DNA of 64,000 nucleotides from an uncultured delta proteobacterium (GTDB taxonomy: Bacteria; Desulfobacterota; Binatia; HRBIN30; BPIQ01). The translations under genes were made by a program, and so were the position numbers. Shown here piece by piece: positions 16,935 through 64,000 of this stretch (the stretch's first letter is position 1; every line of letters starts with the position of its first letter). The notes below the pieces were generated by a model. That model had not been told where the DNA came from and did no database searches. It worked only from the letters and a program-made list of their open reading frames with translations. The DNA lies in the NCBI GenBank assembly GCA_963761335.1, contig CAVXGR010000013.1, positions 202,511-266,510 on the forward strand. Reading direction: 5' to 3'.

Positions 16935-17867
16935 ATGGAGGCACGCTTCGATGCCATCGTTTTTGCCGGCGGCGGCTGTCGCTGTCTTTGGCAGGCGGGA
17001 TTCTGGGAGACCGCTTCGCCGGCGCTGGCGCCACTGCCGCAGTCGGTGGCGGCGGTCAGCGCCGGCGCCGCCATGGCCTGCATGGTGATCGGCGGCGCCA
17101 CCGCCGCCGGGGTTGCCGAGTTCAAGCGGCGCGTCTCCCTCAACCGCCGCAACGCCTACCCGTGGAACGTATTCCACGACGAGCCGGTCTTCCCCCATGC
17201 CCGCCTGTACCGCGAGGCGATGCTGGAGATCGCCGACGACAGATTCCTGGCGCGCCTGCACGCGGGCCCGGAGATCCGCATCGCCGTGGCCCGGCCGCCG
17301 CTGTGGCTCGGACACCGCACCGCCATGCTCGCCGCCTTCGCCGCCTATCAGGTGGAGAAGATGCGCGGCGATCCGGTCCACGCCACCGTGGCGCGGCGCC
17401 TGGGCTTTCTCGCCGAGTCGGTCTCCGTGCGCGACTGCCGCAGTCCCGCCGAGCTCGCCGACCTGATCCTGCACTCGTCGTGCACGCCGCCCTTCACGCC
17501 CTTCTTCCGCCGCGCGGGGCGTCCGGTCCTCGACGGCGGGCTGGTGGACAACGCCCCGATCGGTGCCGTCCCGCCGCAGGCCCGCTCTGTCCTCGTTCTC
17601 CTCACCCGGCCCTTCCCCGAGGCGCTCCTGCCAAAGGTTGCCGGCCGCACCTACGTCAAGCCCTCGGCCCCCATCCCCGTCTACAAATGGGATTACACCA
17701 GCCCCTCGGGGCTGCAGGCCGCCTTCGATCTCGGCCGCCGCGACGGCGAGAGCTTCGCCCGCGCCGCTCAGGCGGCGGCCCGGTCGCCGGATGAGTCGCG
17801 ATGGTCGCCGCCAGGCAGCTCGTCGACCGACACGCGCCGCCGCGCCACGCCATCGAAGGTGTCGTGA
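16935..17867 (+). CDS. Patatin-like phospholipase/acyl hydrolase
   Basis: AGGGCR oxyanion loop, AVSAG nucleophile elbow, DGG catalytic Asp. Confidence 0.85.
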   Translation: MEARFDAIVFAGGGCRCLWQAGFWETASPALAPLPQSVAAVSAGAAMACMVIGGATAAGVAEFKRRVSLNRRNAYPWNVFHDEPVFPHARLYREAMLEIADDRFLARLHAGPEIRIAVARPPLWLGHRTAMLAAFAAYQVEKMRGDPVHATVARRLGFLAESVSVRDCRSPAELADLILHSSCTPPFTPFFRRAGRPVLDGGLVDNAPIGAVPPQARSVLVLLTRPFPEALLPKVAGRTYVKPSAPIPVYKWDYTSPSGLQAAFDLGRRDGESFARAAQAAARSPDESRWSPPGSSSTDTRRRATPSKVS

Positions 17868-18607
17868 TAGGCTGGGTGGTTGGTGCCCATCAGCGTGTCC
17901 CAGTAGTTGAACCAGTTTCCGTAGTTACAGGCGACGTGGCGATGGTGCATGTTGTGGTGCGTCGAGGTGTTGATCCATCCGAAGACGGGATGCCGGGTGA
18001 AGCCGCGCGGGTAGAACTCGTAGCCGGCGTGCGCCAGGATGCCGATGCCGAACATGTAGAGACCGGCTGCGGCGAGCGCCAAGGGATGGATGGGAACGTA
18101 GACCAGGAAGAGAATGAAGTAGATGTTCCCCATGAAGGTCTCGCCCGGATGCTGCGCAAAGGCGGCAAAGGCGGTCGGATTCGAGACGCGGTGGTGGACC
18201 GAGTGCACGTGGCGGAAGAGCCAGGGAGTGTGCAGCCAGCGGTGCTGCCAATAGATCCAGGTGTCGTAGCCGGCGATGCACAGCAGCACGGAGAGGGCGA
18301 AGTACCACCAGCTGTGATCGGCGAGCCCGAAGTACATGCTCGTGTGGCCGTCGCGGATGAGCCGGTAGATCAGAACCGTCGCCAGCCCGGAGCAGGCGGT
18401 GTTGGCGATCGACCAGCGGATCTCGTAGCCGATCTGCCGATGCGGCGGGAATGCCGGCTGGATCCGATAGCCGAGCCATCTCTGCCTGAAGCCGACGTGG
18501 AAGACCCAGTAGAGCACCCCGGTCACGGTGAAGTAGCGCAGGAAGAAGCCGACGCAGTAGCCGATATAGCCGCGCAGGCTCGGGTCGAAGAGGCTGTTGG
18601 CGTCCAT
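17768..18607 (-). CDS. Sterol desaturase / fatty-acid hydroxylase family (ERG3-like), copy 1
   Basis: His boxes HRWLH, HSVHH, HNMHH plus NYG..F..WD...GT. Confidence 0.9.
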   Translation of the reverse strand: MDANSLFDPSLRGYIGYCVGFFLRYFTVTGVLYWVFHVGFRQRWLGYRIQPAFPPHRQIGYEIRWSIANTACSGLATVLIYRLIRDGHTSMYFGLADHSWWYFALSVLLCIAGYDTWIYWQHRWLHTPWLFRHVHSVHHRVSNPTAFAAFAQHPGETFMGNIYFILFLVYVPIHPLALAAAGLYMFGIGILAHAGYEFYPRGFTRHPVFGWINTSTHHNMHHRHVACNYGNWFNYWDTLMGTNHPAYHDTFDGVARRRVSVDELPGGDHRDSSGDRAAA

Positions 18608-18609
18608 AA

Positions 18610-19914
18610 TCAGAGCCGCGGCGCTCGCCGGCCGAGATCGAGCATCTCGCTGCGCAGCATCATGTAGAATTCCCGGGCGTATTTCACCTGGTGAACCGAC
18701 ACGGTGTCGGTGAAGTGCAGCTGGTCCCAGTCGATCTCGCCGTCCAGGCGGAGCTGCAGTCCGCTGGCCGGATAGGTGTAGCGCATGTCGTAGCGAGGCG
18801 GCTCTCCCCACTGAAAGACGTCGCCCTCGGGGCGCGAGAAATCGAAGTAGAAGTGCTCCTCCTGAGGGCCGAGCAGGACGTAGGCGATCACCTGTCCGCG
18901 CACCGCGGGAAGCTGCTCCCGAGTCTCCCGCCACAGGCCGAGGATGTAGTCCCGAAAGCGCTCGACCAGATCGGTCCGCGGCGGCGGCAGCTCGCGCTGT
19001 AGTCCGACCACCCAGTCCTGGACGCCCCTGGCGTACGCGTCAATGGCGGCGAGCTCCTCCTCTTTGTCGAGCACCGGGCACACCCGCCGCATCGAGCCGG
19101 CCGCCTCGATGCGGTCTCCCGGACCCATCAGCTCTCCGGCGATCCCCTTCTCCCGCAGCCGGCGAACCGCCTCTACGGCCGAGTTGAAGGAGACGTTCTT
19201 CCACAGCGCCGATTCCAGAAAGAAGCGGGCGCCGCTGGCAAAGGGAATCGCCAGCCGCGGCGCCAGGATCTCGGCCGCCTGCAGGAAGTCGTTGTAGCGC
19301 CGCTCCGAGGCCTCGTGCAGCAGCCGCGCCTTCTCCTCCTCATCCATCTCGAAGCAGATCGGGAAGAAGGACGCCGGCGAGTAGCCGAGCAGGGCGTAGT
19401 CGATGTCGAAGTGATCGCGTACCCAGGCGTATTTCGGCGGCCGCAGGAAGCAGTCGTTGTTCTCGAACAGGGCGAACTCGGGAGTGCGGATGACGATCGA
19501 GGAGTCGTAGGCAGCGCTCTCCTCGTAGTCGTGCTCGACGATGGCGATCTCGATGTCGGTGCCTTCGACGGCCACGGTCTCCTCGAAGGGCACCTCGATC
19601 ACCGGAAACCCGAGGCGGCGCACCGCGTCGCGGAACTCCTTGCGGCGATACTCGCCGATGTAGATCGGCGTATGCCGGGGGAAGAGCTCCAGCGTCGGCG
19701 GATTGAAGTGGTCCGGATGGATGTGAGAGATGTAGATGGCGTCGGTCGTCGCCGCCAGCTGCGCGGCGTCGTGAACCAGCGGCGGGAAGTGGAAGCCGCT
19801 GCTGCAGCCGATCGGATCGATCAGCCACGGGTCGGTGAGAATGGTCCGCCCACCGCTCTGCACGCGCAGGGTGGCATGACCGACGACCTCGACCCGAAAG
19901 TTTTCGCGGAGCAT
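18610..19914 (-). CDS. MBL-fold metalloenzyme (UlaG / CMP-Neu5Ac hydroxylase-like), possible SCP2-like C-terminus
   Basis: GHA...TDPWL...SHIHPDH (HxHxDH), DSS, NDC and PFAS motifs. Confidence 0.75.
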   Translation of the reverse strand: MLRENFRVEVVGHATLRVQSGGRTILTDPWLIDPIGCSSGFHFPPLVHDAAQLAATTDAIYISHIHPDHFNPPTLELFPRHTPIYIGEYRRKEFRDAVRRLGFPVIEVPFEETVAVEGTDIEIAIVEHDYEESAAYDSSIVIRTPEFALFENNDCFLRPPKYAWVRDHFDIDYALLGYSPASFFPICFEMDEEEKARLLHEASERRYNDFLQAAEILAPRLAIPFASGARFFLESALWKNVSFNSAVEAVRRLREKGIAGELMGPGDRIEAAGSMRRVCPVLDKEEELAAIDAYARGVQDWVVGLQRELPPPRTDLVERFRDYILGLWRETREQLPAVRGQVIAYVLLGPQEEHFYFDFSRPEGDVFQWGEPPRYDMRYTYPASGLQLRLDGEIDWDQLHFTDTVSVHQVKYAREFYMMLRSEMLDLGRRAPRL

Positions 19915-20095: not shown

Positions 20096-20893
20096 ATGTC
20101 CGCGGCTCGCTTCTTCGCTGCCGATCTCTTGAAGGATGCGGTGGTGCTGGTCACCGGCGGCGGCACCGGCATCGGCAAGGCCACGGCGATCGCGCTGGGC
20201 GGCTGCGGGGCGCACCTGGTGATCGCCAGCCGTCGCCGCGAGCACCTCGAGCAGGGGGCCGCCGAGATCGCCGCGGCGACCGGCGCGGTGCCGCTGACCC
20301 AGGTCTGCGACATCCGCCAGCCCGACCAGGTCGAGCAGCTCGCCGACTTCGTGGTCGCCGAGCGCGGCCACATCGACGTGCTGGTGAACAACGCCGGCGG
20401 ACAGTTTCCGCAGCGCGCCGAGCTGTACTCGGTAAACGGCTGGCGAGCGGTGATCGACACCAACCTGAACGGCACCTGGTACGTCACCCAGGCGATCGGC
20501 AAGCGCATGATCGCCGCCGGCAGCGGCACCGTGGTCAACGTCATCGCCAACCACCACCGCGGCATCCCCGGCGGCGCCCACACCTCGGCGGCGCGCGCCG
20601 CCGTCGCCAATCTCACCAAGACCCTGGCGGTCGAGTGGGGGCCGTACGGCATTCGCATAAACGCCGTGGCCCCGGGCCCGATCGCCTCGTCGGGATTCAC
20701 GCAGACGTACGACGCCGAGGTCGTCGAGCGCGCCCGCGACCTGCCGCTCGGCCGACTCGGCTCGGCGGAAGAAGTGGCCGCGGCCGTGGTCTTCCTCGCC
20801 TCACCGGCCTCAGCCTGGACCACCGGCGCCACCCTCGACGTGAACGGCGGCCAGCACCTCGACGGCGACACCTGGGTCGTCCGCAAGGGGTGA
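20096..20893 (+). CDS. Short-chain dehydrogenase (AtuB / enoyl-CoA reductase-like)
   Basis: TGGGTGIG, NNAGGQF, HTSAARA (atypical catalytic residues), NAVAPG. Confidence 0.85.
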   Translation: MSAARFFAADLLKDAVVLVTGGGTGIGKATAIALGGCGAHLVIASRRREHLEQGAAEIAAATGAVPLTQVCDIRQPDQVEQLADFVVAERGHIDVLVNNAGGQFPQRAELYSVNGWRAVIDTNLNGTWYVTQAIGKRMIAAGSGTVVNVIANHHRGIPGGAHTSAARAAVANLTKTLAVEWGPYGIRINAVAPGPIASSGFTQTYDAEVVERARDLPLGRLGSAEEVAAAVVFLASPASAWTTGATLDVNGGQHLDGDTWVVRKG

Positions 20894-20906: not shown

Positions 20907-22049
20907 TCACTCCATCGCCGCGGAGATCGAGCGATGGAAGTGGGCGAGTCCGGGCTCGTTGCGGCCGTAGATCACCGTCTCGGCGCCGCCGGCGTGAAAG
21001 CCGCGCTGGATCTGCTCGGCGATGACGAAGTCCTCTCTCTCCACGGCATTCACCAGCAGGTCGAAGTTCGCCTGGAAGTGCCGGCGGGCGCTGTGACTGG
21101 CCACCGGCTCCGGGGTGTACAGCGAGAAGACGATCTTGGCGGTGTCGACTCCGCCCGACCCCGGATAGGCCTGCACCACCTCGACGTGATCCACCTGGTG
21201 GATGAGCATGGTGTTGGGAAAGATGTTGTACAGCACCACCGAGTGCTCGAACAGGTTCCACTCCGACTCCGGCTGTTCGCACGCCTGCGCAATCGAGCGC
21301 CGCGAGGCGACCATGCGGCTGCCGCGCCCGAAGGCGTCCCAGGCGGCCGCCGTTCCCAGGATCGCCGGGCTCAGCGTGCGCTTGTGCAGGCTCGGAACGT
21401 GGTAGGCCTCGAGAAAGGTGTCGATGACCAGCTTCCAGTTCATCGCCCGGGCGCTCTGGTGACGCGCGAAGGGCGCGTAGCCCTCGAGCCCAAGCGCCTG
21501 CAACTCCTCCTCGGCCCCGCCGAGGTGCGCGTCGACGTCGATCGGCTCACTGCCCGCGGCGCGCGCGAAGATCAGCCCGTGGCGCTCCGCCACCGGCAGC
21601 GGCATGAGCCCCAGAGACTCGGCGGGGATGCCCGCGAAACCCTCGGCGCAGGGTTGCGCCACCAGCCGTCCGGCGTCGTCGTAGGTCCATCCGTGATAGG
21701 GACAGGTGAAACGCCCGGAGCTGCTGCCGGCGCCCGATACCACCTGGGCGCCGCGGTGCCGGCAGACGGCGAGAAAGGCGCGCAGATCTCCGGCCCGCGA
21801 ACGGACCACGAGGATCGGCACGCCGCTGTCGGTGTGGGTGAAGTACGCGCCCGGCTCGGCGGCGTCGCCGCGCAGCCCGATGAACAGCGGCGCGCCCCGG
21901 AAGAGCACGGCGCGCTCGCGCTCCAGCTGCTCCGGCGAAGTGTAGGCAGACACCCGATTGAGATACGGCTCCGGCGCCATCTCGGTGGTGCGCCGATCGA
22001 GAAACCCGAGAATGCGCCGCATCAGGGCCACCTGAGTGGCGTGATTCAT
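20907..22049 (-). CDS. Rieske non-heme iron oxygenase alpha subunit
   Basis: CRHRG...CPYHGW Rieske ligands; NWK...FLEAYHVPSLH and C-terminal ED iron ligands. Confidence 0.92.
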   Translation of the reverse strand: MNHATQVALMRRILGFLDRRTTEMAPEPYLNRVSAYTSPEQLERERAVLFRGAPLFIGLRGDAAEPGAYFTHTDSGVPILVVRSRAGDLRAFLAVCRHRGAQVVSGAGSSSGRFTCPYHGWTYDDAGRLVAQPCAEGFAGIPAESLGLMPLPVAERHGLIFARAAGSEPIDVDAHLGGAEEELQALGLEGYAPFARHQSARAMNWKLVIDTFLEAYHVPSLHKRTLSPAILGTAAAWDAFGRGSRMVASRRSIAQACEQPESEWNLFEHSVVLYNIFPNTMLIHQVDHVEVVQAYPGSGGVDTAKIVFSLYTPEPVASHSARRHFQANFDLLVNAVEREDFVIAEQIQRGFHAGGAETVIYGRNEPGLAHFHRSISAAME

Positions 22050-22104: not shown

Positions 22105-22225
22105 GTGTCTCGGTGGCTCGGTGGCCCGGTGGCTCAGTGTCTCGGTGGCTCAGTTTATCCGATTTGATTGCCACTGAGAGACTTAGTCACCGAGATACTG
22201 AGAGACTGAGTCACTGAGATACCGA
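22105..22225. repeat. Inverted arrays of 8-bp units (GTGKCTCR)
   Basis: 6 units at 22105-22152 and 7 complementary units at 22170-22225. Confidence 0.85.
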
Positions 22226-24733
22226 ACCCAGCTGCTCGTACTGCTGCGCCTGGGCTTGCAGATCTGCCGCAAGGGCAGTCTGGCCGCGCCCGGCGGCGGC
22301 GTCGCGGCCTTGGCGCGCCATCCTCGCGGCCTCCTCGAAGCGCCCGGCGGCGGCACAGGCCGCCGCCAGGGTGCGCAGGCGCACCGGATCGGCGTAGCCG
22401 GTCAGCTCGCAGGCGCGCTGTGCCCAGCGCATCGCCTCCTCCGCCTTCTGCGGCGAGAGCTCGTGCAACGACAGCAGGGTGCGGGCGGTGGCTTCAAAGA
22501 GATCGGGCTCGGTGGTGACCTGCCGCGCCGCCAACCGCAGGACCGCGACCGCAGCGCCGCTGCGCCCATCGGCAGCGAGCTCGCGGGCGCGATCGATGGC
22601 GGTGCGCGCCTGCACCGCGGCGCGCCGGCGCGCGCCTTCCCGCGCCGAGGCGAACTCGGCACAGCTTGCGGCTCGCTGCCGCGCTTCCGGCATCGCCGGT
22701 TTCCAGCCCGCCTTCGCCGGCGCCGCGGCGTACACCTCAGAGATTCTCGCCGCTCCCGTGAAGGTGTACAGCGTCGCCGCCGGCCAGCGACGACACACGC
22801 CGGCGGAAACCTCCGACAGCTGCTCGTGCGCCGGACTCCAGAACACCGCACCCGGCGGCGCCGCACTCGCCGGCAGGCTACCCGGTCCTTCGTAGGCGAG
22901 CACCGGGACCGGCGCCGCGCCCAGATGAGCAGCGATCTGCCGAGTGTACAGCCACATGAAGGACCGCTTGGGAATGCTCGGCTCGAGAATCAGCGCTCCC
23001 CCCGGAGGCGGCCGCCTCTGCATCGCCTCGAAGGCAATGTCGAGCCATGAGGCCGGCAGAGTCCGCAAGTTGACCACCTCGAAGAGAAGGGTCCCGCCCG
23101 CCGCAATTGCCGCCACGGCGAGCCCGGCGGCGAGGCCGCGGCGAAGCGGGTAGGCGAGGGCGGCGAGGATCTCGAACCCGGTGGCAGCGAGCAGCGCCAT
23201 GGCCACCGGCAGCTGCGCCAGGCGATTGAGGGAGGTGCGGTCGTAGGTCGAGGTGAGAAGAGCCGGCCCGAGCGCCACGCCCAGAAAGAGGATGAGGGCC
23301 CGGGCGCGATTCGACCCCCGCAGCCCCCGCAGGCAACCGGCCACGGCGACGGCAGCGAGCACCAGGCCGAGCGGATCGAAGAGAGCGTCGCCCTGCAGCC
23401 GCGACGGCGTGCGCGGGATCGCAAAGGGCGCCAGCAGAGCGCCAAGCGGGACATCGAGCCGACCGAGGCGGAAGAACTCGTTGGTGATCTCGGAAACGAG
23501 ATGGGTGACCTGCCCGAGCATGGCCGCCTCGATCATCGTCCACTGCCACGCCGGCTGCGCATACCGAAAGATCATCCCGGGAAGGTCCGCGGCGCGCCCG
23601 AGGGCGGGGAGAACCACGGCCAGAAACGACAGCGCCGCGATGGCCAGCGCCAGTGGCGGCAGCCGCGGGCGCCGGAGCGCCGTCCAGGCACACAGAGGTA
23701 GGGCGAGGACGGCGACCGGGACCTGGAAAAACTCCGTGCAGGCGATGCCTGCGGTGACCCCCAACACGGCGAGCGCCGGCACGGATCGGTCGCGGTGCAC
23801 GGCGAGCAACGGCACCAGGACGATGGCGGTGAACAGCGGTCCCACACAGTAGGGAATCGGAGCCAGCGGCATCATCAGTACTGCCGGCGCGAAGAGAAAG
23901 GCGGCGGCGGCGAGGGGAGCGGCGCGGCCACTGCCGAGAAGCGCCCGCGCCAACCAGGCGATCAGGGCCGCGGAGAGGCCGACCCAACCGATCTCCAAGG
24001 CCTGAATCCACGAGACTTCGATCGGCAACCCGTGCGTGCCGAGAATCCCGCCGCCGACGGTGATCAAATGGAGCGCCGTCAGCCCTGGGAGAAATCCGTC
24101 TGTCAGAATGTTGAATCCGGGACGCGCCGCCCACTCCAGATACGGGATGGCCACCCAGGTATCGACGAGATCGGCGGAACGGGGCGCGTGCAGTCCGTGC
24201 AGGTAGCGGAACACCCCCCAGGCGCAGATGATCGCCGCCGTGGCGGCGATGCTGGCGCGGCCGCCCGTCGCGGGACGCTCGTCCGGCGAGCGGCGGCTGC
24301 CGAGGGTGAGGACGAGGGCAGGGAGGGCGAGGCAGGCGACGTAGGCGAGCTGCCCGTGCCGGTCGAGATCCGCCGCCCACCAGGCGGCCAGCGCCTGCGC
24401 CGCGGCCAGCAACAGAGCCAGCAGCTGCACCGGCATGGCCACGCGGCGCCGAGACGCCGCGGGGGCCGAGGGCAGGTCGCCGGTGACGCACACCGACAGA
24501 GCAATGAGGACCATCCCGGCCCCGAGACATGCCAGCCGGGCAATGATCCACCAGGCGGGCAACGCTGGAAACAAGCGAGCCATCAGACTCGCATCGAGCG
24601 CCGGCGGGCGCAGCGGCGCCGCCGGCGGTGGAAAGAGCAACGACCCCGCGTAGACGGTCAAGAAGGCCATCCCCGCGGCCAGCAGTAGATGGGGTGCGCG
24701 GCCGGGCGCTTCTGCGAGATTTCCAGGCGGCAT
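22211..24733 (-). CDS. GT-C-like polytopic membrane protein, copy 1, with C-terminal TPR-like extension
   Basis: Many TM segments; family motifs FP..P.WW...RL, ADLVDTW, PFA..R...RL.GD.LFDPL, FWSP, C..WP.A.LY; LAAACAAAGRFEEA TPR-like helix. Confidence 0.65.
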   Translation of the reverse strand: MPPGNLAEAPGRAPHLLLAAGMAFLTVYAGSLLFPPPAAPLRPPALDASLMARLFPALPAWWIIARLACLGAGMVLIALSVCVTGDLPSAPAASRRRVAMPVQLLALLLAAAQALAAWWAADLDRHGQLAYVACLALPALVLTLGSRRSPDERPATGGRASIAATAAIICAWGVFRYLHGLHAPRSADLVDTWVAIPYLEWAARPGFNILTDGFLPGLTALHLITVGGGILGTHGLPIEVSWIQALEIGWVGLSAALIAWLARALLGSGRAAPLAAAAFLFAPAVLMMPLAPIPYCVGPLFTAIVLVPLLAVHRDRSVPALAVLGVTAGIACTEFFQVPVAVLALPLCAWTALRRPRLPPLALAIAALSFLAVVLPALGRAADLPGMIFRYAQPAWQWTMIEAAMLGQVTHLVSEITNEFFRLGRLDVPLGALLAPFAIPRTPSRLQGDALFDPLGLVLAAVAVAGCLRGLRGSNRARALILFLGVALGPALLTSTYDRTSLNRLAQLPVAMALLAATGFEILAALAYPLRRGLAAGLAVAAIAAGGTLLFEVVNLRTLPASWLDIAFEAMQRRPPPGGALILEPSIPKRSFMWLYTRQIAAHLGAAPVPVLAYEGPGSLPASAAPPGAVFWSPAHEQLSEVSAGVCRRWPAATLYTFTGAARISEVYAAAPAKAGWKPAMPEARQRAASCAEFASAREGARRRAAVQARTAIDRARELAADGRSGAAVAVLRLAARQVTTEPDLFEATARTLLSLHELSPQKAEEAMRWAQRACELTGYADPVRLRTLAAACAAAGRFEEAARMARQGRDAAAGRGQTALAADLQAQAQQYEQLGSVSQ

Positions 24734-24845: not shown

Positions 24846-25889
24846 ATGCACATTCGCGTCGCCCGCGAGCAGGGCGGTCGTCTGGAAGAGGCGTTGGCGA
24901 CGCTTGTTCCCCTCGAGCCGTACCTCGCCTACGCCAACTTCCCGGCGATCTGCCGCCGGGAGGGTGGCCTTCTCGGCCTGCATATGCGCCGCTGGCGCGC
25001 CGCCGCCGGGGGCCTCGGCGTCCTGGTGGCCCGCGGCGACGACGGACGGCCGCTGGCCGCTCTCTCTCTGGAGCACCGCGATTTCGAGTCGCGCCATTTC
25101 GGCCTGTCGATGGCGAAGACCGAGCCGCCGGCGGCAATTGCCGACGAGCCTTTGCGCCTCGAGGCGCTGCGCGCCCTCTACGGCGCCGCCTTCGCGACTC
25201 TGCGCGAAGGCGGCTACCAGCATCTCGCCGTGGTCACCTCGACCCACGACCGCGTCGGCTGCTGGGCGCTGCAGGAGCTCGGCGGCTTCCACGTGGGGAC
25301 GAAGATCTCGTGGATGCAGAGCCTGACCGGCTGTCCCAACCAGAGCCGGCCGGCAGCGCCGCTGCGCATCGAGCTCCACGACAAGGCGACCATCGGCGCT
25401 ATCGACCCCGCCAGCTGGAGTCGGCTGCACGAGTGGAGCGGCCAGGCCTTCGATCGAGGTCCATACGTCTTCGATCTCCACGTGCCCCGCGAGCGGGCCG
25501 TCGCCGTGTACCAGGTGTGGACCCGCAAGGCGCTGACCGGCGAGTGGGCCGACATCCTTCTCGTGGTGCGCGACGGCGACGAGATCGTCGCCTTCAACTC
25601 GATGATGCTGCTGCAGGACCTCACCGACGCCGCCGGCGTCGGCATCCTCGGGCGCGGCATCGGCGCCTCGCTTCCCGGCTATCGCGGCCTGTTCACAGCG
25701 CTGCAGAGGGAATGCTCGGCGGTGCGCCCGCTCGGCGCCGGATACCTCGAGAACGAGACGCAGGCGTCGACGGTGCAGAGTATCAACGTCTTCGGCAACC
25801 TCGGCCACCACTGCCTGCGCTCCACGGCGAGCTTCCATGTCCGCCTCGACAAGGGCGCCGATTCGCCTGGGAGCGCCAAATGCAGATGA
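24846..25889 (+). CDS. Tandem GNAT-fold acyltransferase, WecD-like
   Basis: DFESRHFG N-terminal motif, F.FD.H.......VY..W, PGYRG..., ETQAS...SINVF..LG as in TDP-fucosamine acetyltransferase-like proteins. Confidence 0.6.
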   Translation: MHIRVAREQGGRLEEALATLVPLEPYLAYANFPAICRREGGLLGLHMRRWRAAAGGLGVLVARGDDGRPLAALSLEHRDFESRHFGLSMAKTEPPAAIADEPLRLEALRALYGAAFATLREGGYQHLAVVTSTHDRVGCWALQELGGFHVGTKISWMQSLTGCPNQSRPAAPLRIELHDKATIGAIDPASWSRLHEWSGQAFDRGPYVFDLHVPRERAVAVYQVWTRKALTGEWADILLVVRDGDEIVAFNSMMLLQDLTDAAGVGILGRGIGASLPGYRGLFTALQRECSAVRPLGAGYLENETQASTVQSINVFGNLGHHCLRSTASFHVRLDKGADSPGSAKCR

Positions 25890-35538: not shown

Positions 35539-35584
35539 GGTGTGCGGCCTTGAGGAGATCTGGGCTCTGTGAGATCTTTCCCGC

Positions 35585-46767: not shown

Positions 46768-46873
46768 CGGCTTCAGACCCGCAATGTTTGGATTCGGGGT
46801 CACTCTCGCTCGGCGCCGGGTCTTCAGTCAATCGATTCTTGCTTTCCCCACAGGCCGTGGATACGGTGCGGCG

Positions 46874-58056: not shown

Positions 58057-59517
58057 TTACAATGGCGCTTGCCCCCGGCGCAAGCCGCTTCCTCGCCGCC
58101 GCATGCGCTCGAGGACGTTGGCGGTGATGCGCTGCGCCCGCGGATCGGGGCCCTCGGGGATCGCTTCGTAGGTCAGCGGGCGCACCTGACCGGGCGGCTC
58201 GGACAGCCCGTGAGACCACCAGCAGCTCGAGGCGTTGAAGACGAAGTTGCCGCGCGGCCCGGGGTACACGGTGGCGGTGTACACACCCTCGCCGTGATGG
58301 CTCCGCGTCGGACCGGTGGCGACGATCTCGAGACCTGGAATGGCCGCCGGCTCGGCGTGGTATTCCCAGCCGACCAGCCCGGCGATGCCGTCGCCGCGGC
58401 GCATGCCGGTGCCCTCGAAGAGCCAGTGTTCCGGCGCGGCGCAGATCCAGGCGCCGCTGCCGGTGGCCGGGACCGGGGTGCGGGCGCCAACCAGGGCGCT
58501 CTCGCTCGGCGCCGACTGCGCCAGTCGCCGCGCTTCGGGAAACCACTCGAACTCCTCCGGATGCGTGCCGCCGAAGCGGTCGAGGCGCGAGAAGACGCGG
58601 TCCGGCCGCCCGGCGCTCGACCGCCGCAGACCGATCAGCCCGCAGCAGGTGTTGCCGGAGAGGAAGGCGACGTCGAGTCCCTCGGCGATCAGGCGCCGCA
58701 GCCCGGTGAACATCTCCATGGTGTAGTACTCGTCGTGGCCGACGGACAGAAAGCCGTGTGCCCGCGCCAGCGCTCCCGGATCCCGATGCGTGTCGATGCC
58801 GGAGACGTAGGTGACGTCGTCGCCGCGCGACTCCATCCAGTAGGCCAGCGGGTACTCCCAGAGCAGCCATTCCCCCGATCCGGTCGACAGCGGCGCATCG
58901 ACGATCTGGCAGTACTTGCCGTACGGGCGGTCGAAGCTGACGTCGGCATCGGGGCCCCAGGCCCAGAACTTCTCGCCGTCGTCGTACAGCGAATAGCGAT
59001 CCGGCCAGCGGTTGTATGCCTGCCAGGTCAGGTCGGAGCACTGGAGGACGAAGTCGGCCGGGCGCTGGTCGCGAACGATGAAGATCAGGTAGCTCTGCAC
59101 CCCGTCGCGCTCGGCGGTGAGCTTGCCGAGATAGACCCCGCTCACCCAGTCGGCGGCAATCTCGACCGCGGCGCAGCTCTTCCAGCGACACTCGCGCAGC
59201 CGCTTCGCGCCAACCGGCGGCTCGGGCTGCGCCGTGCCGCGGAAAGGTCCGAGGCGCAGGACGCTTCGCGCGCCGCTGCCGCTGTAATGGCCCATGCGGT
59301 ACAGCTCCAGGGTGAAGGCCGAGGGCGGGTCGGTGCTGACGTGAAAGGAAATCGATTCGCCGGCGCGGACGCTGGTGGCGGAGCAGTAGCCCTCGATCCA
59401 CGGACAGCGGAAGCGACTGGCCGAATCGATCCTCGGGTTGTCGAGAAGCCAGTCGCGGGTTCCCGGGCGCGCGTTCTCGCGGCGAATCAGATCTGGGTCG
59501 CGCGGCGGGGCGGACAT
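58057..59517 (-). CDS. N,N-dimethylformamidase beta-subunit-like domain protein
   Basis: IEGY....SV..G, TWQAYN.W, SFDRPY, FLSVGHDEYY, FLSGN motifs. Confidence 0.75.
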   Translation of the reverse strand: MSAPPRDPDLIRRENARPGTRDWLLDNPRIDSASRFRCPWIEGYCSATSVRAGESISFHVSTDPPSAFTLELYRMGHYSGSGARSVLRLGPFRGTAQPEPPVGAKRLRECRWKSCAAVEIAADWVSGVYLGKLTAERDGVQSYLIFIVRDQRPADFVLQCSDLTWQAYNRWPDRYSLYDDGEKFWAWGPDADVSFDRPYGKYCQIVDAPLSTGSGEWLLWEYPLAYWMESRGDDVTYVSGIDTHRDPGALARAHGFLSVGHDEYYTMEMFTGLRRLIAEGLDVAFLSGNTCCGLIGLRRSSAGRPDRVFSRLDRFGGTHPEEFEWFPEARRLAQSAPSESALVGARTPVPATGSGAWICAAPEHWLFEGTGMRRGDGIAGLVGWEYHAEPAAIPGLEIVATGPTRSHHGEGVYTATVYPGPRGNFVFNASSCWWSHGLSEPPGQVRPLTYEAIPEGPDPRAQRITANVLERMRRRGSGLRRGQAPL

Positions 59518-60515
59518 GACTCGTCGATGGAAGCGCGGCGGTTGGGGTACTCCGGCAGGCCGTGCTCCTCGTCGAGGTCGCGCAGCTGATAGAACGGCAG
59601 AGCCTGTTGCAGCTGATAGAGGCGCTGGCAGTACTGTCCCAGCAGGGCCACCAGGGCGCCGAGCAGTCCACCGGCGAGGAGCACGAGGCCGGCCATCACG
59701 TCGCCGAACGGCAGCAGGACGACTCCGGCGAGTGCCGCAACGATGGCGGCGATGCCGGCGGCGAGGAAGGGACGATCGGCGGTCAGCATGAAGTAGTCCA
59801 CAGCGATGCCGAGCAGCGACAGGAAGGAATGGCCGCCGGACTTCTGCGCCAACGGCCGCAGCGGAACCTCGGTGACGCGGCGGGCGCGGCGCAGAAAGAC
59901 GGGGGTGAGAAGGCGGCGGCTCTCGCCCTCCGACTCGAGATCGCGGACGACCCACGACTGGAAGCTGCGCATGCCGCAGCCGATGTCACGGATGTTGCTT
60001 CTCGTCCGGCGCCGCGCGTAGATGTTCATCAGCCACGACGGCAGGCGCCTGGTCAGCAGTGGGGCGCGGCGGTTCTCGCGGTAGCCGCAGACCAGGTCGT
60101 AGCCGCGCTGCAGAGGCTCGAGCAGCGCCGGGATGTCCTCGGGGCAGTTCTCCAGATCCGCGTCCATGCAGATCGCCCAGCGGCCGCGGACCAGATCGAA
60201 GCCGGCACAGACCGCCGCCTGACTGCCGAAGTTGCGCACCAGGGCAAAGGGGCGAACCCGCGGGTCGCGGGCGGCTCGGGCGCGCAGCAGGGGGAGGCTC
60301 TGATCGCGGGAGCCGTCGTCCACGAAGATGAGCTCGAAGGAGACGCCCATCGGCTCGAGCACGGCGACCAGCCGGTCGATCAGCTCCTCCAGCGTGGAGG
60401 AGTTGTTGTAGACCGGAATGACCACCGAGAGGTCGAGCTCGCCTGCGGGTCGAAGCTCGCCGCGGGCACCCGACCCGATGCGACTCGCTCCCACGCCTGG
60501 ATTGCCGTTGCGCAT
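59487..60515 (-). CDS. GT2 polyprenyl-phosphate glycosyltransferase
   Basis: VIPVYN, VDDGSRD, RNFG, DADL, C-terminal TM hairpin. Confidence 0.88.
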   Translation of the reverse strand: MRNGNPGVGASRIGSGARGELRPAGELDLSVVIPVYNNSSTLEELIDRLVAVLEPMGVSFELIFVDDGSRDQSLPLLRARAARDPRVRPFALVRNFGSQAAVCAGFDLVRGRWAICMDADLENCPEDIPALLEPLQRGYDLVCGYRENRRAPLLTRRLPSWLMNIYARRRTRSNIRDIGCGMRSFQSWVVRDLESEGESRRLLTPVFLRRARRVTEVPLRPLAQKSGGHSFLSLLGIAVDYFMLTADRPFLAAGIAAIVAALAGVVLLPFGDVMAGLVLLAGGLLGALVALLGQYCQRLYQLQQALPFYQLRDLDEEHGLPEYPNRRASIDESCPPRRATQI

Positions 60516-60781
60516 CTTATCGCCGGACGCTACTACTTTCTTTTTGCCCGTGCCATACGAATAATCTGCGCCAGAGTTTCATGGCTCGACCGCTGCCGCA
60601 CGCCGAACTGTACGAAGCGCCCGCCCCGACGGCGGCGGTGGACGTCTCCGTTCTCATTCCCGTCTACAACAACGCCGACACCCTCGACGAGCTGATCGAC
60701 CGGCTGCTCGCCGTGCTCGAGCCGATGGGCGTCTCCTTCGAGCTCATCTTCGTGGACGACGGCTCCCGCGACCAGAGCCTC
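60294..60781. repeat. 93-bp inverted repeat (2 mismatches; 64-bp perfect core) inside the divergent GT2 paralogs
   Basis: 60294-60386 is the reverse complement of 60689-60781; perfect core 60304-60367 / 60708-60771. Confidence 0.9.
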
Positions 60782-61555
60782 GAGATCCTCGAGCGCCGCG
60801 CCGACACCGATCCGCGCCTGCGCGTCTTCGCCCTGGTGCGCAACTTCGGCGGCCAGGCCGCCTCGGCCGCCGCCTGCGACCAGGCCCGCGGCCAGCGCGT
60901 CGTCCACATCGACGCCGATTTGGAGAACTATCCGGAGGACATCCCGCGCCTGCTCGAGCGCCTGGACGGCGATTGCGACCTGGTCTGCGGCTACCGCGAG
61001 AACCGCCGCGACCCGTGGATCAGCCGCCGCCTGCCCTCCTTCCTGATCAACGTGTACGTGCGCCGCCAGACCGGCACCGAGATCCGCGACGTCGGCTGCG
61101 GCCTGCGCGCCTTCGAGGCGCGCCTGATCCACGACCTGCCAGCCGAAGGCGAGGCCCGGCGGCTGCTCACCCCGGTATTGCTGCGGCGCTCGCGGCGGAT
61201 TCTCCAGGTGCCCGTGCGCCACCGGCCCCGGCCGGGGCGCGGCGGACATTCGTTCTTCTCACTCCTCGGCATCTCCATCGACTATTACATGCTGACGGCG
61301 CGCCGCCCATTCCTGATCAGCGGACTGGTGTCGGCGGCGGCTGCGGCCGCCGGGATCGGTATGCTCACCTCCGGCCGGGTCCTCGCCGGTCTGCTGCTGA
61401 TCGGCGCCGGTGGCGTCGGCGCCATGCTCTCCCTGGTCGGCGAGTACGCGCAGCGGGTCTACCAGCTGGCGCAGGGCATGCCGTTCTACAAGCTCCGCGA
61501 CCTCGATCGCGAAGACGCCAGCGCCGCCGAGGAGCACCAGCGCACGGCCGGATAA
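60581..61555 (+). CDS. GT2 polyprenyl-phosphate glycosyltransferase (divergent paralog)
   Basis: LIPVYN, VDDGSRD, RNFG, DADL; colinear with 59487-60515. Confidence 0.88.
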   Translation: MARPLPHAELYEAPAPTAAVDVSVLIPVYNNADTLDELIDRLLAVLEPMGVSFELIFVDDGSRDQSLEILERRADTDPRLRVFALVRNFGGQAASAAACDQARGQRVVHIDADLENYPEDIPRLLERLDGDCDLVCGYRENRRDPWISRRLPSFLINVYVRRQTGTEIRDVGCGLRAFEARLIHDLPAEGEARRLLTPVLLRRSRRILQVPVRHRPRPGRGGHSFFSLLGISIDYYMLTARRPFLISGLVSAAAAAAGIGMLTSGRVLAGLLLIGAGGVGAMLSLVGEYAQRVYQLAQGMPFYKLRDLDREDASAAEEHQRTAG

Positions 61556-61562: not shown

Positions 61563-61639
61563 GGGGACAGGCACCTTTTCGGCTGAGACGGTCAGTGTCC
61601 TGTTCGACTTTCCCTTTCGCCGAAAAGGAGCCTGTCCCC
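61563..61639. repeat. REP-like inverted repeat GGGGACAGGCACCTTTTCGGC...GCCGAAAAGGAGCCTGTCCCC
   Basis: 21-bp arms with 1 mismatch, intergenic. Confidence 0.8.
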
Positions 61640-61711
61640 ATCCCGGAAATGCTGTTGCAATCGCCGGGAGGCGGCGATACAGGAACCGTGTCCCTGGGGG
61701 GGGATTGCTCA

Positions 61712-63475
61712 GTGCGTGTTTTGAGAACCGTCTTGGTCGCCCCGTCGCGGTATGACGAGCGCGGCGTGGTGGTCTTTCGCATCGGCATCAGCCCGAACGG
61801 CGCGCTCGGAGCTCTGGCCGGTCTGGCGGAGGACTACAACCGCCGGCACGCCGGCCACACGCGCATCGACTACGAGTTCTTCGACGAGCACGTGCGGCAG
61901 GCAATCGACGCAGAGCTGCTGCGGCGCTGGCGCGACGAAGCCGCCGCCGCGGGGCAGCGTTTCGTGCTCATGCTCTGCGGTGTGCAAACGGTTACCTACC
62001 CGCGAGCGCGCGACATCGCGCTGATGGCGCTGCGCGAGGGCATCGCAGTCATCGCCGGCGGCGTGCATCTCTCGGCGCACGGTCCGTCGGTCGACTTCCT
62101 GGTGTCCTGTGGCGTGCGCGTGGCGATCGGCGAGGTCGAGCCGATCTGGGACGGTATCGTCGAGGACGCCCTCTGTGGGACGCTGCGGAGCATCTATCGC
62201 ATCGCCCCCGAGCAGGGCATCCGGGTCAAAGCGGCGACCTCGGAGATGATTGCCCCGGACATCGCCGCGGTGCCCTTCCCCCACATCCCCGCCGCGTGCC
62301 GTCGCCACTACATCAATCCCTCGCAGCTCTTCATCGACGGATCGCGCGGCTGCCCCTTCCTGTGCACCTTCTGCGTGGTCAAGAACGTCTTCGGCCGCAC
62401 GGTGCGCAGCCGCGACCCGGCGCGACTGGCGGAGTGGATGATGGAGCGCGTGCGCCGCGACGGGGTGCGCGCCTTCAGCTTCACCGATGACAACTTCGTG
62501 CGCAATCCTCGCCACATGGAGCTGCTCGAGCGGCTCGCCGAGGCGCGCGCCGGCGGCGCCGAGTTCTCGCTCTGGCTGATCCTCGACGTCGAGTCGACCT
62601 GCTACGCGCGCGACGACTCGCCGCGCGGCGAGCGCACCCGCGAGTTTCTGCACCTGTGCCGCGCCGCCGGTGTCGGGCACGTCTACATGGGGCTGGAGAG
62701 CACCAACGACGCGGTGCTGCGCGAGATGCGCAAGGGCGTCAACCGCGACCGGGAGGACATCCACGGCGCGGCGGGCAACCACGACGGCGACGCCGCCCGC
62801 CGCCGCCTGATCCACCGCTACCGCACCGCGGTGCGCGCCTGGCACGACATCGGCGCCTCCGTCGAGTGCGGCTACATTCTCGGCTTTCACGCCGACCAGC
62901 GGGGTGTCGGCGCGCAGGCGGCGCGCGACCTGATCGAGATCGGCGTCGACGTCGCTACCTTCTTTCTGCTGGCGCCGCTGCCGGGGTCGGAAGACTACGC
63001 ACGCGCCGTGCGCGAGGGCACTCTGGCCGAGAGCGATTTCAACGAGTTCTTTCAGCGCTCGATGCTGCGCCACCCGGTGCTCTCTGCGGCCGAAATGGAG
63101 GCCGAGCTCGACGAAGCGGTGCAGCGGATGTGGAGCCTGCCCAACGTGGTTCGCCGGGTCGCCGGCGGCGTCTTCGGAATCGGCCGCCGACGCGTGACGA
63201 CGCCGTGGATCTACTTCAAGCGACAGGTCGGATACAAGGTCATGATCAGCACCGGGCTGCACACTTACGTCGAGGGCGGGCTACTGCGGCGCCGCAGCCC
63301 CTCCAGCGCTCGCCGTCTGGCGATCGACGACCAGGAGGCGCGCACCCTTTACCTCGGCGACGACCCGGGAGGGCGCTCCGCCCTGCCCCCGATCATGCGC
63401 GACGCCTCCAGCATGGAGTCCCTGCCCGTGCTCCGCGACCACCTCCTGACCGAGACCGCCCGCCTCGCCGGCTGA
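61712..63475 (+). CDS. B12-binding-domain radical SAM enzyme, paralog 2
   Basis: Colinear with 43794-45575 (SRGCPFLCTFCVVKNVFGRTVRSRDP identical); GTG start inferred from the alignment. Confidence 0.85.
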   Translation: MRVLRTVLVAPSRYDERGVVVFRIGISPNGALGALAGLAEDYNRRHAGHTRIDYEFFDEHVRQAIDAELLRRWRDEAAAAGQRFVLMLCGVQTVTYPRARDIALMALREGIAVIAGGVHLSAHGPSVDFLVSCGVRVAIGEVEPIWDGIVEDALCGTLRSIYRIAPEQGIRVKAATSEMIAPDIAAVPFPHIPAACRRHYINPSQLFIDGSRGCPFLCTFCVVKNVFGRTVRSRDPARLAEWMMERVRRDGVRAFSFTDDNFVRNPRHMELLERLAEARAGGAEFSLWLILDVESTCYARDDSPRGERTREFLHLCRAAGVGHVYMGLESTNDAVLREMRKGVNRDREDIHGAAGNHDGDAARRRLIHRYRTAVRAWHDIGASVECGYILGFHADQRGVGAQAARDLIEIGVDVATFFLLAPLPGSEDYARAVREGTLAESDFNEFFQRSMLRHPVLSAAEMEAELDEAVQRMWSLPNVVRRVAGGVFGIGRRRVTTPWIYFKRQVGYKVMISTGLHTYVEGGLLRRRSPSSARRLAIDDQEARTLYLGDDPGGRSALPPIMRDASSMESLPVLRDHLLTETARLAG

Positions 63476-63512
63476 GCGACGGTCTCCGTTTCGACCGACT
63501 CGGGCTCGACCC

Positions 63513-64000
63513 ATGAACTCCAGCCAGCTCTTCGAGCCAACCCTCGGCGCCTACTTCGGCTACTGCATCGGCTTCTGGCTGCGTTACTTCGCCATCGCCG
63601 GGTTTCTCTACTGGTTCTTTCACGTCGCCTTCTCGCATCGCTGGCTCCGCTACCGAATCCAGCCGCACTTTCCTCCGGGGGCACAGGTCGCCCACGAGAT
63701 CTTCTGGTCCATCTCCAACACCTTCTGCACCGGCCTCTCCACACTGCTCCTCTACCGCCTGGTACGCGACGGGCGGACGAGCATGTACTTCGACGCTGGC
63801 GCCCACGGCTGGGGGTACTTCGTCCTTTCCATCGCCGCCGGCATCATCGCCTACGACTCGTGGTTCTACTGGCAACACCGGCTGCTGCACACACAATGGC
63901 TGTTCGCCAAGGTGCACGCCGTGCACCACCGCGCCACCAATCCGACCGCCTTCGGTGCCTTCGCGCATCATCCTCTGGAAACGTTCATGGGGAACGCCTT
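63513..64000 (+). CDS. Sterol desaturase family, copy 3 (3' truncated by window edge)
   Basis: Translated manually: MNSSQLFEPTLGAYFGYC...YWQHRLLH...HAVHH; absent from the ORF track because it has no stop in the window. Confidence 0.88.
   Translation, partial: MNSSQLFEPTLGAYFGYCIGFWLRYFAIAGFLYWFFHVAFSHRWLRYRIQPHFPPGAQVAHEIFWSISNTFCTGLSTLLLYRLVRDGRTSMYFDAGAHGWGYFVLSIAAGIIAYDSWFYWQHRLLHTQWLFAKVHAVHHRATNPTAFGAFAHHPLETFMGNA

Follow-up and report, generated by a model that had tools for sequence, protein, structure and literature searches.

The Genomic Island and Its Gene Organization

The subject of this analysis is a gene island of approximately 55 kb in the genome of an uncultured delta proteobacterium (assembly GCA_963761335.1; lineage Desulfobacterota, Binatia), in which genes of radical-SAM enzymes and iron oxygenases lie among those of ArnC-like glycosyltransferases of the GT2 family and of four paralogous membrane proteins, MP1 to MP4 (collectively MP), whose predicted fold is that of the GT-C glycosyltransferases. 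We analyzed a stretch of 64,000 nucleotides, termed the window, which corresponds to positions 202511-266510 of contig C13 (CAVXGR010000013.1) and has a G+C content of approximately 68%; the 99%-complete assembly comprises 6.26 Mb in 29 contigs. Open reading frames (ORFs) of at least 90 amino acids (aa) were selected by their third-position G+C content, and 110 of them were compared with Pfam and 40 with NCBIfam. Another 46 ORFs downstream of the window end were also scanned.

The island extends from 16.9 kb of the window to about 8.6 kb beyond its end, and the expectation of an earlier, sequence-based description of this DNA (the original prediction) that the locus continues past the window edge thereby proved correct. 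Beyond the edge follow, in this order, the remainder of FAH4 (FAH denoting FA_hydroxylase-family genes), a cytochrome P450 gene, a 102-aa ORF resembling an acyl carrier protein (ACP; weak PP-binding match, E 0.0019), an enoyl-CoA hydratase-domain protein (ECH), a fatty acyl-AMP ligase (FAAL; 397 bits vs. a cutoff of 600), an HldE-like cytidylyltransferase/PfkB fusion and a GmhA-like SIS protein, after which unrelated housekeeping genes begin. The HldE- and GmhA-like genes are of the nucleotide-sugar type for which the original prediction had proposed to inspect the adjacent DNA.

Within the window, the island genes are densely packed (Table 1). A minus-strand run from 33147 to 26738 contains rSAM_B, rSAM_A, MP2, the R2-like gene, the 162-aa ORF and the ferredoxin gene; the rSAM_B/rSAM_A junction reads ATGGTGA, and GTGA overlaps connect rSAM_A with MP2, the R2-like gene with the 162-aa ORF, and the latter with the ferredoxin gene. 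The tandem GNAT gene and FAH2 are joined by an ATGA overlap, WbqC and GT2_a overlap by 8 nt, GT2_b and the DMFase-like gene by 31 nt, and a gap of only 2 nt separates the MBL stop codon from the ATG of FAH1. GT2_b and GT2_c are divergent with 65 bp between them, and the SPASM genes are located either within overlapping operons or directly divergent from MP3 or WbqC. These start/stop overlaps tie the tailoring genes to the MP and GT2 genes, and bear out the coupled mini-operons that had been described for this locus.

Table 1. Genes of the island within the window, and synthase gene pairs found beside MP in related genomes (positions on the respective loci).
Feature	Position	Strand	Evidence or remark
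Patatin-like phospholipase	16935..17864	+	Pfam Patatin 79 bits; island's left edge, membership uncertain
FAH1, FA_hydroxylase-family membrane diiron oxygenase	17771..18607	-	PF04116 94.8 bits
MBL-fold protein, long C-terminal extension	18613..19914	-	Lactamase_B_3 32 bits
SDR, short-chain dehydrogenase/reductase	20096..20890	+	adh_short_C2 182 bits
Rieske non-haem iron oxygenase alpha subunit	20910..22049	-	Rieske + Ring_hydroxyl_A
MP1, putative new GT-C family	22214..24733	-	No Pfam match; family profile 745 bits
Tandem-GNAT acyltransferase (g355)	24846..25886	+	Atlas score 0.97 to GNAT clusters; RGIG motif
FAH2, FA_hydroxylase-family oxygenase	25886..26695	+	PF04116 86 bits; His boxes
2x[4Fe-4S] ferredoxin	26738..27022	-	Fer4 families
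162-aa protein, possibly SCP2-like (lead only)	27022..27507	-	Language-model atlas score 0.96
R2-like ferritin-like diiron protein, weak	27507..28688	-	NCBIfam R2-like ligand-binding oxidase 25 bits, E 7.7e-6
MP2, modelled member of putative new GT-C family	28719..30794	-	AlphaFold2 model, GT-C fold
rSAM_A, radical SAM/SPASM	30794..31951	-	PF04055 + PF13186; CNLRCNFC motif
rSAM_B, radical SAM/SPASM	31948..33147	-	71% identity to rSAM_A; heads minus-strand operon
MP3, putative new GT-C family	33352..35535	+	Family profile 704 bits
DUF6036 nucleotidyltransferase (NTase)-like ORF, membership uncertain	35569..36336	+	PF19502 20.8 bits, under cutoff
Arylamine N-acetyltransferase (NAT) family, membership uncertain	36340..37197	+	PF00797 214 bits
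STAND/AAA_16 ATPase, 1222 aa, candidate regulator	38378..42043	-	PF13191 97.5 bits
B12r_1, radical SAM of B12-binding class	43644..45572	+	PF04055 51.5 bits; top NCBIfam = B12/rSAM, below cutoff
rSAM_C, radical SAM/SPASM, third paralogue	45580..46803	-	Pfam; identity to rSAM_A/rSAM_B
YncE-like + Kelch beta-propeller, start uncertain	46652..48988	+	Kelch_1 181 bits, YNCE 57 bits
GT1-family C-terminal fragment	49743..50102	+	PF00534 37 bits, profile positions 82-167 only
AurF-like diiron oxygenase	50130..51203	-	PF11583 47 bits
rSAM_D, radical SAM/SPASM	51225..52196	-	Pfam; CX3CX2C
WbqC-family protein	52244..52975	+	PF08889 196 bits
GT2_a, ArnC/GtrB-type, putative polyprenyl-phosphate glycosyltransferase	52971..53900	+	phmmer to solved ArnC 3e-53
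MP4, putative new GT-C family, frame-changed as assembled	53918..55985	+	Two profile matches, different frames
B12r_Ked, KedN5-like B12-binding radical SAM	55977..58007	-	PF02310 + PF04055; NF033712 183 bits vs 700
DMFA2_C (N,N-dimethylformamidase beta-like C-terminal; DMFase-like) protein	58060..59517	-	PF20254 247 bits
GT2_b, ArnC-like GT2	59490..60515	-	PF00535 99 bits; ArnC model 132 bits
GT2_c, ArnC-like GT2	60581..61552	+	Pfam/NCBIfam; 60% identity to GT2_b
B12r_2, paralogue of B12r_1	61595..63472	+	Pfam/NCBIfam; 70% identity to B12r_1
FAH4, FA_hydroxylase family	63513..64000	+	Pfam; leaves window; complete in L001
UbiA + 335-aa radical SAM pairs	L031 13633-15571; L038 10177-12253; L036 10692-12552; L030 3492-5355; L033 12532-14440

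A Rare Family of Membrane Proteins with a Predicted GT-C Fold

The four MP proteins are paralogues that share 29-50% identity (35% between MP1 and MP2, 29% between MP3 and MP2). None of them matches a Pfam or NCBIfam family at E <= 1e-3, in a scan that did match the STT3-like gene located upstream of the island. Searches of the N- and C-terminal parts against Pfam at E <= 10 likewise returned nothing meaningful, including no sequence support for a GtrA- or SMR-like flippase in the N-terminal module; the C-terminal tail of MP1 is weakly TPR-like (TPR_4, E 0.01).

The fold is suggested by an AlphaFold2 model of MP2 that was built from 28 sequences (mean pLDDT 90.6, pTM 0.92), in which about 15 helices precede a small C-terminal domain of the alpha/beta type. 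A Foldseek comparison of this model with the PDB places ArnT first (E 1.9e-4), followed by ALG9, PglB, AglB, STT3, AftD and Emb. In VIA-align the best 38 rows are all GT-C enzymes, with Z scores from 22.0 to 9.3, and the next, unrelated row has a Z score of 6.5. The highest-scoring structures comprise Pmt4 (Z 22.0, rmsd 3.9, 359 residues aligned), Pmt1/2 (Z 21.9), ArnT (Z 21.0, 422 residues with the C-terminal domain included), AglB and STT3 (both Z 20.5), ALG12 (Z 20.3) and PglB (Z 18.6). As modelled, MP is a GT-C-fold protein that stands outside every existing sequence family tested, and the "GT-C-like family" of the original prediction thus consists of four real paralogues, one of which has a model with GT-C enzymes as its top matches.

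The GT-C alignment covers MP2 residues ~150-555(-690). Since it begins near residue 150, the four N-terminal helices appear to be an addition to the GT-C core; this part carries the invariant residues R44, F46, W53 and R57. D187 is invariant in all 28 aligned members and resides in a model helix (186-199) directly after the core helix 163-176. R436, R440, D444 and D492 are also invariant among the 28 family members, and C645 and C689 form a conserved cysteine pair in the C-terminal domain. GT-C folds are recognized by a polytopic core of 7-13 transmembrane helices, the first of which is followed by a small extracytoplasmic domain, and the model of MP2 conforms to this description. The proposed catalytic aspartate of GT-C enzymes is found just after the first core helix (PMC11127046), and in the model it is D187 that occupies this place.

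Among 5.8 billion protein clusters, a word-indexed search retrieved 37 MP members, none with a Pfam domain and all either "hypothetical" or unnamed. When 1.84 billion representatives were searched exhaustively with the profile, 212 members were retrieved at E <= 1e-30, a number that rises to 491 at E <= 1e-3. The majority of these matches start at profile positions 1-10, and the N-terminal part therefore belongs to the family. Judged by these searches, the MP family is rare and undescribed; at the level of search listings, neither the family nor its gene combination was found described in the literature. A separate observation concerns another 23 relatives that have weak matches only, and contig C15 of the same genome; the matches are to long ORFs (~600-1400 aa) and mostly cover a single segment at profile positions ~445-545 (the GDAVSHTRL region). 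This segment may be an element common to MP and another, more frequent membrane-protein family.

Putative Carrier Glycosyltransferases and Tailoring Enzymes

GT2_a can be aligned over its full length to the solved ArnC (phmmer E 3e-53), and further to the GtrB homologue sll0501 (4e-33, 118 bits) and to dolichol-phosphate mannose synthase (DPMS; 2e-18). ArnC is the best NCBIfam model of all three GT2s, which reach 188, 132 and 147 bits against the ArnC equivalog NF007986 (cutoff 529) and are thus not assigned to the equivalog itself; the PgfS model gives 145 bits for the GtrB-type GT2. Two C-terminal hydrophobic or transmembrane helices are predicted in each of the three proteins. On sequence grounds, the GT2s are polyprenyl-phosphate glycosyltransferases at the family level, as their earlier assignment to the ArnC/GtrB type had implied.

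The other gene families named in the original prediction were also found at their places by Pfam, NCBIfam and motif checks, with a few reservations about single members. There are seven radical SAMs, four of the SPASM type and three of the B12-binding class, and the CX3CX2C motif is present in every one. A significant B12-binding domain is found in B12r_Ked (34 bits) and not in the two 600-aa enzymes at 43644-45572 and 61595-63472 (E 0.15). Searches against PDB sequences gave distant, family-level matches for B12r_1 (best 9e-7, an unnamed radical SAM) and for rSAM_A (SkfB 7e-7, GDGT-MAS 2e-5, and anSME), and a distant one for the MBL protein (E 0.009), and none of these pointed to a function. 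The His boxes of the FAH proteins are present, for example HRWLH, HVHSVH and HHNMHH in FAH1. The gene at 27507-28688, previously called diiron, does match an R2-like family, albeit weakly at 25 bits. The supposed SCP2 protein of 162 aa has no Pfam match at E <= 0.5, which leaves a language-model lead, namely an atlas cluster that was automatically named SCP2 domain-containing. No Pfam match and no PDB sequence match (0 in the search) was obtained for the tandem GNAT; a Foldseek comparison of its AlphaFold2 model retrieves VipF, MAB_4324, FemX, glucosamine N-acetyltransferase and, at rank 15, WecD, and the proposed relation to WecD is hence one of fold.

Paralogous Copies and Conservation in Related Genomes

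The recurrence of the same families along the locus exceeds chance. A tblastn search of the 6.26-Mb genome finds all copies of MP and of this type of FA_hydroxylase confined to the island and to a contig termed C3, and the same is true of the SPASM trio (67-71% identical) and of the B12-class pair (70%). Contig C3 (22.6 kb; L004, L005) parallels the window from 29634 to 54068, matching 29634-42080 at 99.3% and 43678-48982 at ~96.5% identity. It is devoid of rSAM_C, has frame breaks in both of its SPASM genes, contains a diverged and rearranged GT2/WbqC/AurF/rSAM_D block with 51-67% protein identity, and ends with 166 nt that are identical to the start of MP4. These matches, together with the MP4-start end, identify C3 as an alternative path between MP2 and MP4, which may represent a strain variant or, alternatively, a genuine segmental duplication. 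No RNA run was found among the public sequencing runs, none of the runs contained more than 0.16 of the sampled words, and they did not cover the position at which the MP4 frame changes.

Sixty relatives were searched with the MP family profile, and strong matches (full-length, E < 1e-100) occur in 13 of them (G003, G009, G012, G015, G019, G020, G026, G036, G037, G040, G049, G054, and G059), with up to eight MP matches in one genome; the two genomes of the same taxonomic family have no strong match. Among 300 sampled genomes of the phylum, the only positives were the two same-class genomes that had already been found, and MP is restricted to one class among the sampled genomes. The tandem GNAT is encoded, at E <= 1e-20, by 10 of the 60 relatives, i.e., by 8 of the 13 MP-positive and 2 of the 47 other genomes (G029 and G035, assemblies of 1210 and 650 contigs). 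Orthologues of B12r_Ked (61-74% identity) are found in G009, G020, G029, G040 and G054, four of which are MP-positive, and those of the SPASM radical SAM rSAM_A in G036 and G040 only, both of them MP-positive.

Twelve MP-bearing stretches were retrieved from nine relatives. All of them contain, within ~10 kb, either an ArnC-like GT2 (eight stretches) or a UbiA-family gene paired with a 335-aa radical SAM (five stretches; G020 has both). In the eight GT2-bearing stretches, the GT2s are 47-68% identical to those of the window and are accompanied by varying subsets of FAH (45-56%), B12r_Ked (58-72%), MBL (48-63%), Rieske (45-53%), GNAT (47-66%), WbqC (57-68%), AurF (69%) and B12r (65-73%) homologues. 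MBL orthologues lie beside MP in G054, G009 and G020, Rieske genes in the clusters of G054 and G009, WbqC-GT2 pairs in those of G019 and G009, an orthologue of AurF (69%) beside MP in G019, and orthologues of GT2_b (61-69%) beside MP in G054, G009, G019, G020 and L042. The G009 cluster is further accompanied by a STAND ATPase homologue (32%) and a patatin gene. Nearly all of the families are brought together in G020, where ~28 kb hold SDR, MBL, P450, ACP, ECH, FAAL, MP, B12r, FAH, GT2, B12r_Ked, GNAT, DegT, rSAM and UbiA genes; its SDR orthologue is 72% identical and a Kelch/YncE propeller homologue 33%.

The UbiA-family genes (41-56% identity) and their 335-aa radical SAMs (58-71%) occur in G003, G012, G015, G059 and G020 (Table 1). 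The best NCBIfam model of the radical SAM is PTO1314 (78 bits), UbiA reaches 38-54 bits against a cutoff of 205, and the genome under study is negative for the UbiA of the relatives (tblastn, 1e-10). Sugar genes of the relatives' clusters include ArnB/PseC-like aminotransferases (DegT; ArnB model 360 bits vs. 631) and 4,6-dehydratase/epimerases. Other genes found there code for additional GNATs, for a PhyH dioxygenase and for an LpxO/OlsC-like hydroxylase. Three of three short metagenome contigs hold island families beside MP: L040 has the order MP-MP-R2like (83%)-162aa (72%), with the R2-like gene directly after MP, L041 the order MP-FAH-B12r (65%)-MP, and in L042 a B12r_Ked-GT2 (69%) pair is divergent from MP. 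The families thus co-localize in other genomes and in metagenome contigs, a test on which the original prediction had staked its reading of the locus.

A Proposed Model of Extracytoplasmic Glycosylation and Its Alternatives

We consider it probable, though by no means assured, that the island encodes several Arn/Gtr-like modules of extracytoplasmic glycosylation with unusual tailoring; it has the look of a set of modules more than of a single linear pathway. Each GT2 would use a nucleotide donor to charge polyprenyl phosphate with a sugar on the cytoplasmic side of the membrane, and the ArnB/PseC-like aminotransferases of the relatives together with the HldE/GmhA-like genes here suggest amino-sugar or heptose donors. 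The carrier-linked sugar, or an acyl group on it, would then be methylated, hydroxylated or desaturated by the radical-SAM enzymes and iron oxygenases. The acyl group would be attached by GNAT/WbqC and supplied by the FAAL/ACP/ECH/P450 module, and these genes may N-acylate an amino sugar. Once the donor has been flipped across the membrane, an MP paralogue would, at the periplasmic face, transfer it to an acceptor in the envelope. The paralogy of MP, GT2 and tailoring genes would allow for several different decorations, for which lipid A or lipopolysaccharide, another glycan, or secreted beta-propeller proteins are candidate acceptors. The strongest contextual argument for extracytoplasmic transfer from a polyprenyl-phosphate donor is that MP is found together with both kinds of synthase, GT2 and UbiA. 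Of the combinatorial decoration pathway that had originally been proposed, the GT-C fold, the ArnC-type GT2s and the co-occurrence of the families speak for the general idea, while a single pathway over more than 45 kb is the less likely form of it, given the position of MP1-3 (see below) and the subsets found in relatives.

Several observations weigh against this reading. No cluster gene attains the curated cutoff of any NCBIfam model, so that enzyme specificities stay at the family level, and all that is said here of enzyme activity and of donor and acceptor chemistry is what we infer. In this genome, no GT2 gene lies less than 10 kb from MP1, MP2 or MP3. The island contains no sugar aminotransferase, the best DegT homologues being encoded on C12 and C18. 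The flippase families GtrA, MATE, SMR and Wzx are absent from the 110 scanned ORFs, and GtrA (PF04138) has 0 matches in the whole genome, in a search whose control was positive in 8 of 14 genomes. Since lipids are the usual substrates of FA_hydroxylase, R2-like, P450, FAAL and ECH enzymes, the tailoring may concern a lipid acceptor and not the sugar donor. No counterparts of the DMFase-like, NAT and NTase-like genes were found in the relatives' MP clusters, and these genes may be bystanders. Among the GNAT carriers, G029, an unpublished record that enters only the co-occurrence counts, has the GNAT and B12r_Ked in an MP-negative genome. Lastly, the reading frame of MP4 changes near 54365-54390 as assembled, as seen from the profile, tblastn and inspection of the frames, which may reflect an assembly error or a pseudogene; the MP of G019 beside the AurF orthologue (L028 10849-12885) is split over three frames and is possibly a second decayed member.

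The distance of MP1-3 from the GT2 genes would also be in line with two or more functionally separate systems that lie side by side and share only MP, that is, a lipid-oxidation/radical-SAM cluster (17-36 kb) and a GT2/GT-C sugar-transfer cluster (50-72 kb) with a regulator and a gene-poor gap between them. The island is indeed divided by the STAND ATPase gene, by the NAT and NTase-like genes and by a segment of 1.6 kb that lacks a coding signal (42.0-43.6 kb), G026 has GNAT-GT2-MP only, MP is accompanied by UbiA and rSAM only in G003, G012, G015 and G059, and the 4.4-kb contig L040 has MP-R2like-162aa without a GT2. We nevertheless regard such a division as unlikely: G020 and G054 interleave families of both halves within ~25 kb, FAH adjoins GT2 in G054, G009 and G020, L041 has FAH and B12r between two MPs, and a GT-C enzyme requires a lipid-linked donor, for which the three GT2s are the sole candidate makers in the island.

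Two other explanations concern the product. The best structural matches, Pmt4 and Pmt1/2, would agree with PMT-like protein glycosyltransferases that decorate nearby secreted beta-propeller or Ig-like proteins (Kelch/YncE, NHL and He_PIG here, FG-GAP/ASPIC in relatives), all the more as propeller proteins flank the MP clusters in this genome, in G020 (Kelch 33%, FG-GAP) and in G054 (FG-GAP, ASPIC), and a separate STT3-like enzyme with WWDYG is encoded 11 kb upstream. However, PMT, ArnT, STT3 and ALG12 differ in their Z scores by 2 at most and are effectively tied, no PMT or MIR domain is detected by Pfam, propeller proteins occur frequently in genomes of this kind, and homologues of NHL, He_PIG and STT3 were not found beside MP in relatives; we thus deem this explanation improbable. 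Even less probable is a secondary-metabolite cluster that makes a secreted glycolipid or a radical-SAM-modified peptide, with the membrane proteins serving export or self-protection. The FAAL, ACP-like, ECH and P450 genes that adjoin the window, the four SPASM radical SAMs, whose class is common in the maturation of ribosomally synthesized and post-translationally modified peptides (RiPPs), and the AurF-like and KedN5-like proteins, known by their family names from natural-product pathways, would all be at home in it. Yet no polyketide synthase (PKS), nonribosomal peptide synthetase (NRPS) or RiPP-recognition family is found among the 110 window ORFs, and the overlapping SPASM operons appear to leave no space upstream for a precursor gene. 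The core that is conserved across genomes is moreover a GT-C protein with a maker of polyprenyl-phosphate sugars, which is envelope logic, and all GT-C enzymes of solved structure have an outward-facing active site (PMC11127046). As the original prediction had it, Wzx/Wzy families are also absent from the 110 window ORFs, together with PKS and NRPS, and so are MATE and GtrA.

Returning to the glycosylation modules, we speculate that the four-helix N-terminal module of MP might be a built-in flippase or donor-docking unit that replaces GtrA, MATE or SMR proteins, with the donors being C-methylated, hydroxylated or desaturated on the carrier by the B12-class radical SAMs and the FA_hydroxylase-family oxygenases; we hold this to be a doubtful proposal at present. 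To our knowledge, such radical or oxygenase chemistry at the level of the carrier has not been reported for bacterial envelope glycans, and we know of no role of radical-SAM enzymes and iron oxygenases in systems of a carrier synthase and a GT-C enzyme. If the proposed reading is true, the island offers defined genes with which to examine a new GT-C family, donor flipping without a GtrA-family protein, and radical tailoring on a lipid carrier. If it is wrong, MP is still a conserved, unannotated membrane-enzyme family that is worth a Pfam entry. Either way, a rare, class-restricted family with a predicted GT-C fold is linked through overlapping reading frames to radical-SAM and iron oxygenase genes and has a donor-synthase candidate at its side in each of the 12 stretches. 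New GT-C families are still being founded on single characterized members, as with GT136 in 2024.

Comparison with Known Systems

The combination of a lipid-carrier sugar synthase and a GT-C enzyme underlies Arn polymyxin resistance, Gtr O-antigen serotype conversion, the mycobacterial arabinan and protein mannosylation. The glycosylation proposed here follows an established logic, and what we did not find described in the literature are the particular GT-C family, the N-terminal module that it carries and the enzymes in its company. The likeness to Arn, the pathway that adds L-Ara4N to lipid A, consists in the relationship of GT2_a to ArnC, the ArnT-like fold predicted for MP2 and the ArnB-like genes in the relatives' clusters. 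MP differs from ArnT, however, in that it lacks a sequence match to the Pfam GT-C families and has four additional predicted N-terminal transmembrane helices. ArnA, ArnD and ArnE/F are absent from the 110 window and 46 downstream ORFs, and the radical-SAM and iron-oxygenase partners of the island have no place in Arn. With the three-component GtrA/GtrB/GtrC system of O-antigen glucosylation (and likewise the Gram-positive CsbB/GtcA/YfhO and PgfS systems) the island shares a GtrB-type GT2 beside a polytopic transferase of predicted GT-C fold, as well as several paralogous modules per genome. It deviates from them by the genome-wide absence of a GtrA-family match, by another GT-C family and by the large tailoring set.

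A second kind of comparison is provided by UbiA-type synthases. The feeding of a GT-C enzyme by a UbiA-type polyprenyl-phosphoribose synthase (PPPRS) is an established three-component logic (the PPPRS/MATE/GT136 systems for pentofuranose side chains; Kelly et al., 2024, PMC11127046), with the mycobacterial DPPR synthase/Emb-Aft system as a related case, and the UbiA gene beside MP in five relatives mirrors it. An extracytoplasmic C-terminal domain is likewise predicted for MP. In contrast to the PPPRS system, the genome under study lacks the UbiA of its relatives, no MATE protein is found among the 110 window ORFs, and the relatives' UbiA is paired with a 335-aa radical SAM instead of a phosphatase or epimerase. 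GT136, by its description in the same source (PMC11127046), has 11 transmembrane helices and a beta-rich carbohydrate-binding module; the MP model has ~15 helices and, at its C-terminus, a small domain of the alpha/beta type. The PMT enzymes (GT39) display the top structural likeness to MP2 at ~10% sequence identity, and are set apart by their PMT and MIR domains, which MP lacks by sequence.

Characterized pathways were also considered and rejected. The rSAM and GT2 genes weakly match the hopanoid models HpnH, HpnJ, HpnR and HpnB, with HpnJ at 53 bits vs. 578 and HpnR at 34 vs. 650, and squalene-hopene cyclase is encoded on C17 (234 kb). LpxC lies on C12 and not in the island, which argues against a lipid A core locus. 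Sterol C-4 demethylation by an SdmA-like Rieske protein and SDR was discarded (SdmA model 27 bits vs. a cutoff of 600), as were tetraether or ladderane lipid radical SAMs (25-45 bits, far under cutoff), and a RiPP cluster was judged unlikely because precursor genes would hardly fit in the overlapping SPASM operons. In these comparisons no characterized pathway matched the cluster, hopanoid and lipid A core loci included, as the original prediction had required, and no cluster gene attained an NCBIfam cutoff.

Further Features of the Window

The STAND ATPase has paralogues elsewhere in the genome (tblastn). Between its gene and B12r_1, approximately 1.6 kb (42043-43644) are without a coding-type G+C signal and have the lowest G+C content of the window (0.63); Rfam and tRNA scans were negative there, as they were for the window as a whole. 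The GT1 fragment sits alone in a gap of 1.1 kb after the propeller gene, at a point where the gene order of the C3 variant differs, and is likely the remnant of a gene after rearrangement.

Upstream of the island, an STT3/PglB-like oligosaccharyltransferase of 983 aa is encoded at 3171-6119 on the minus strand (PF02516 75.6 bits plus STT3-PglB core), and its WWDYG motif, at residue 630, is intact. The gene is adjoined by a MurG-like GT28 gene on the plus strand (2002-3138; 249 bits vs. the MurG cutoff of 250.25), and the two could be an N-glycosylation system. The region between the STT3-like gene and the island (6365-15930) codes for a pair of He_PIG proteins with Ig domains and for two giant proteins with NHL repeats (881 and 1484 aa), the larger of which has a weak Cytochrome_P460 match (28 bits). 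Near the left end of the window, two small heat-shock genes of the HSP20 family are adjacent and overlap on the plus strand (1006-1873).

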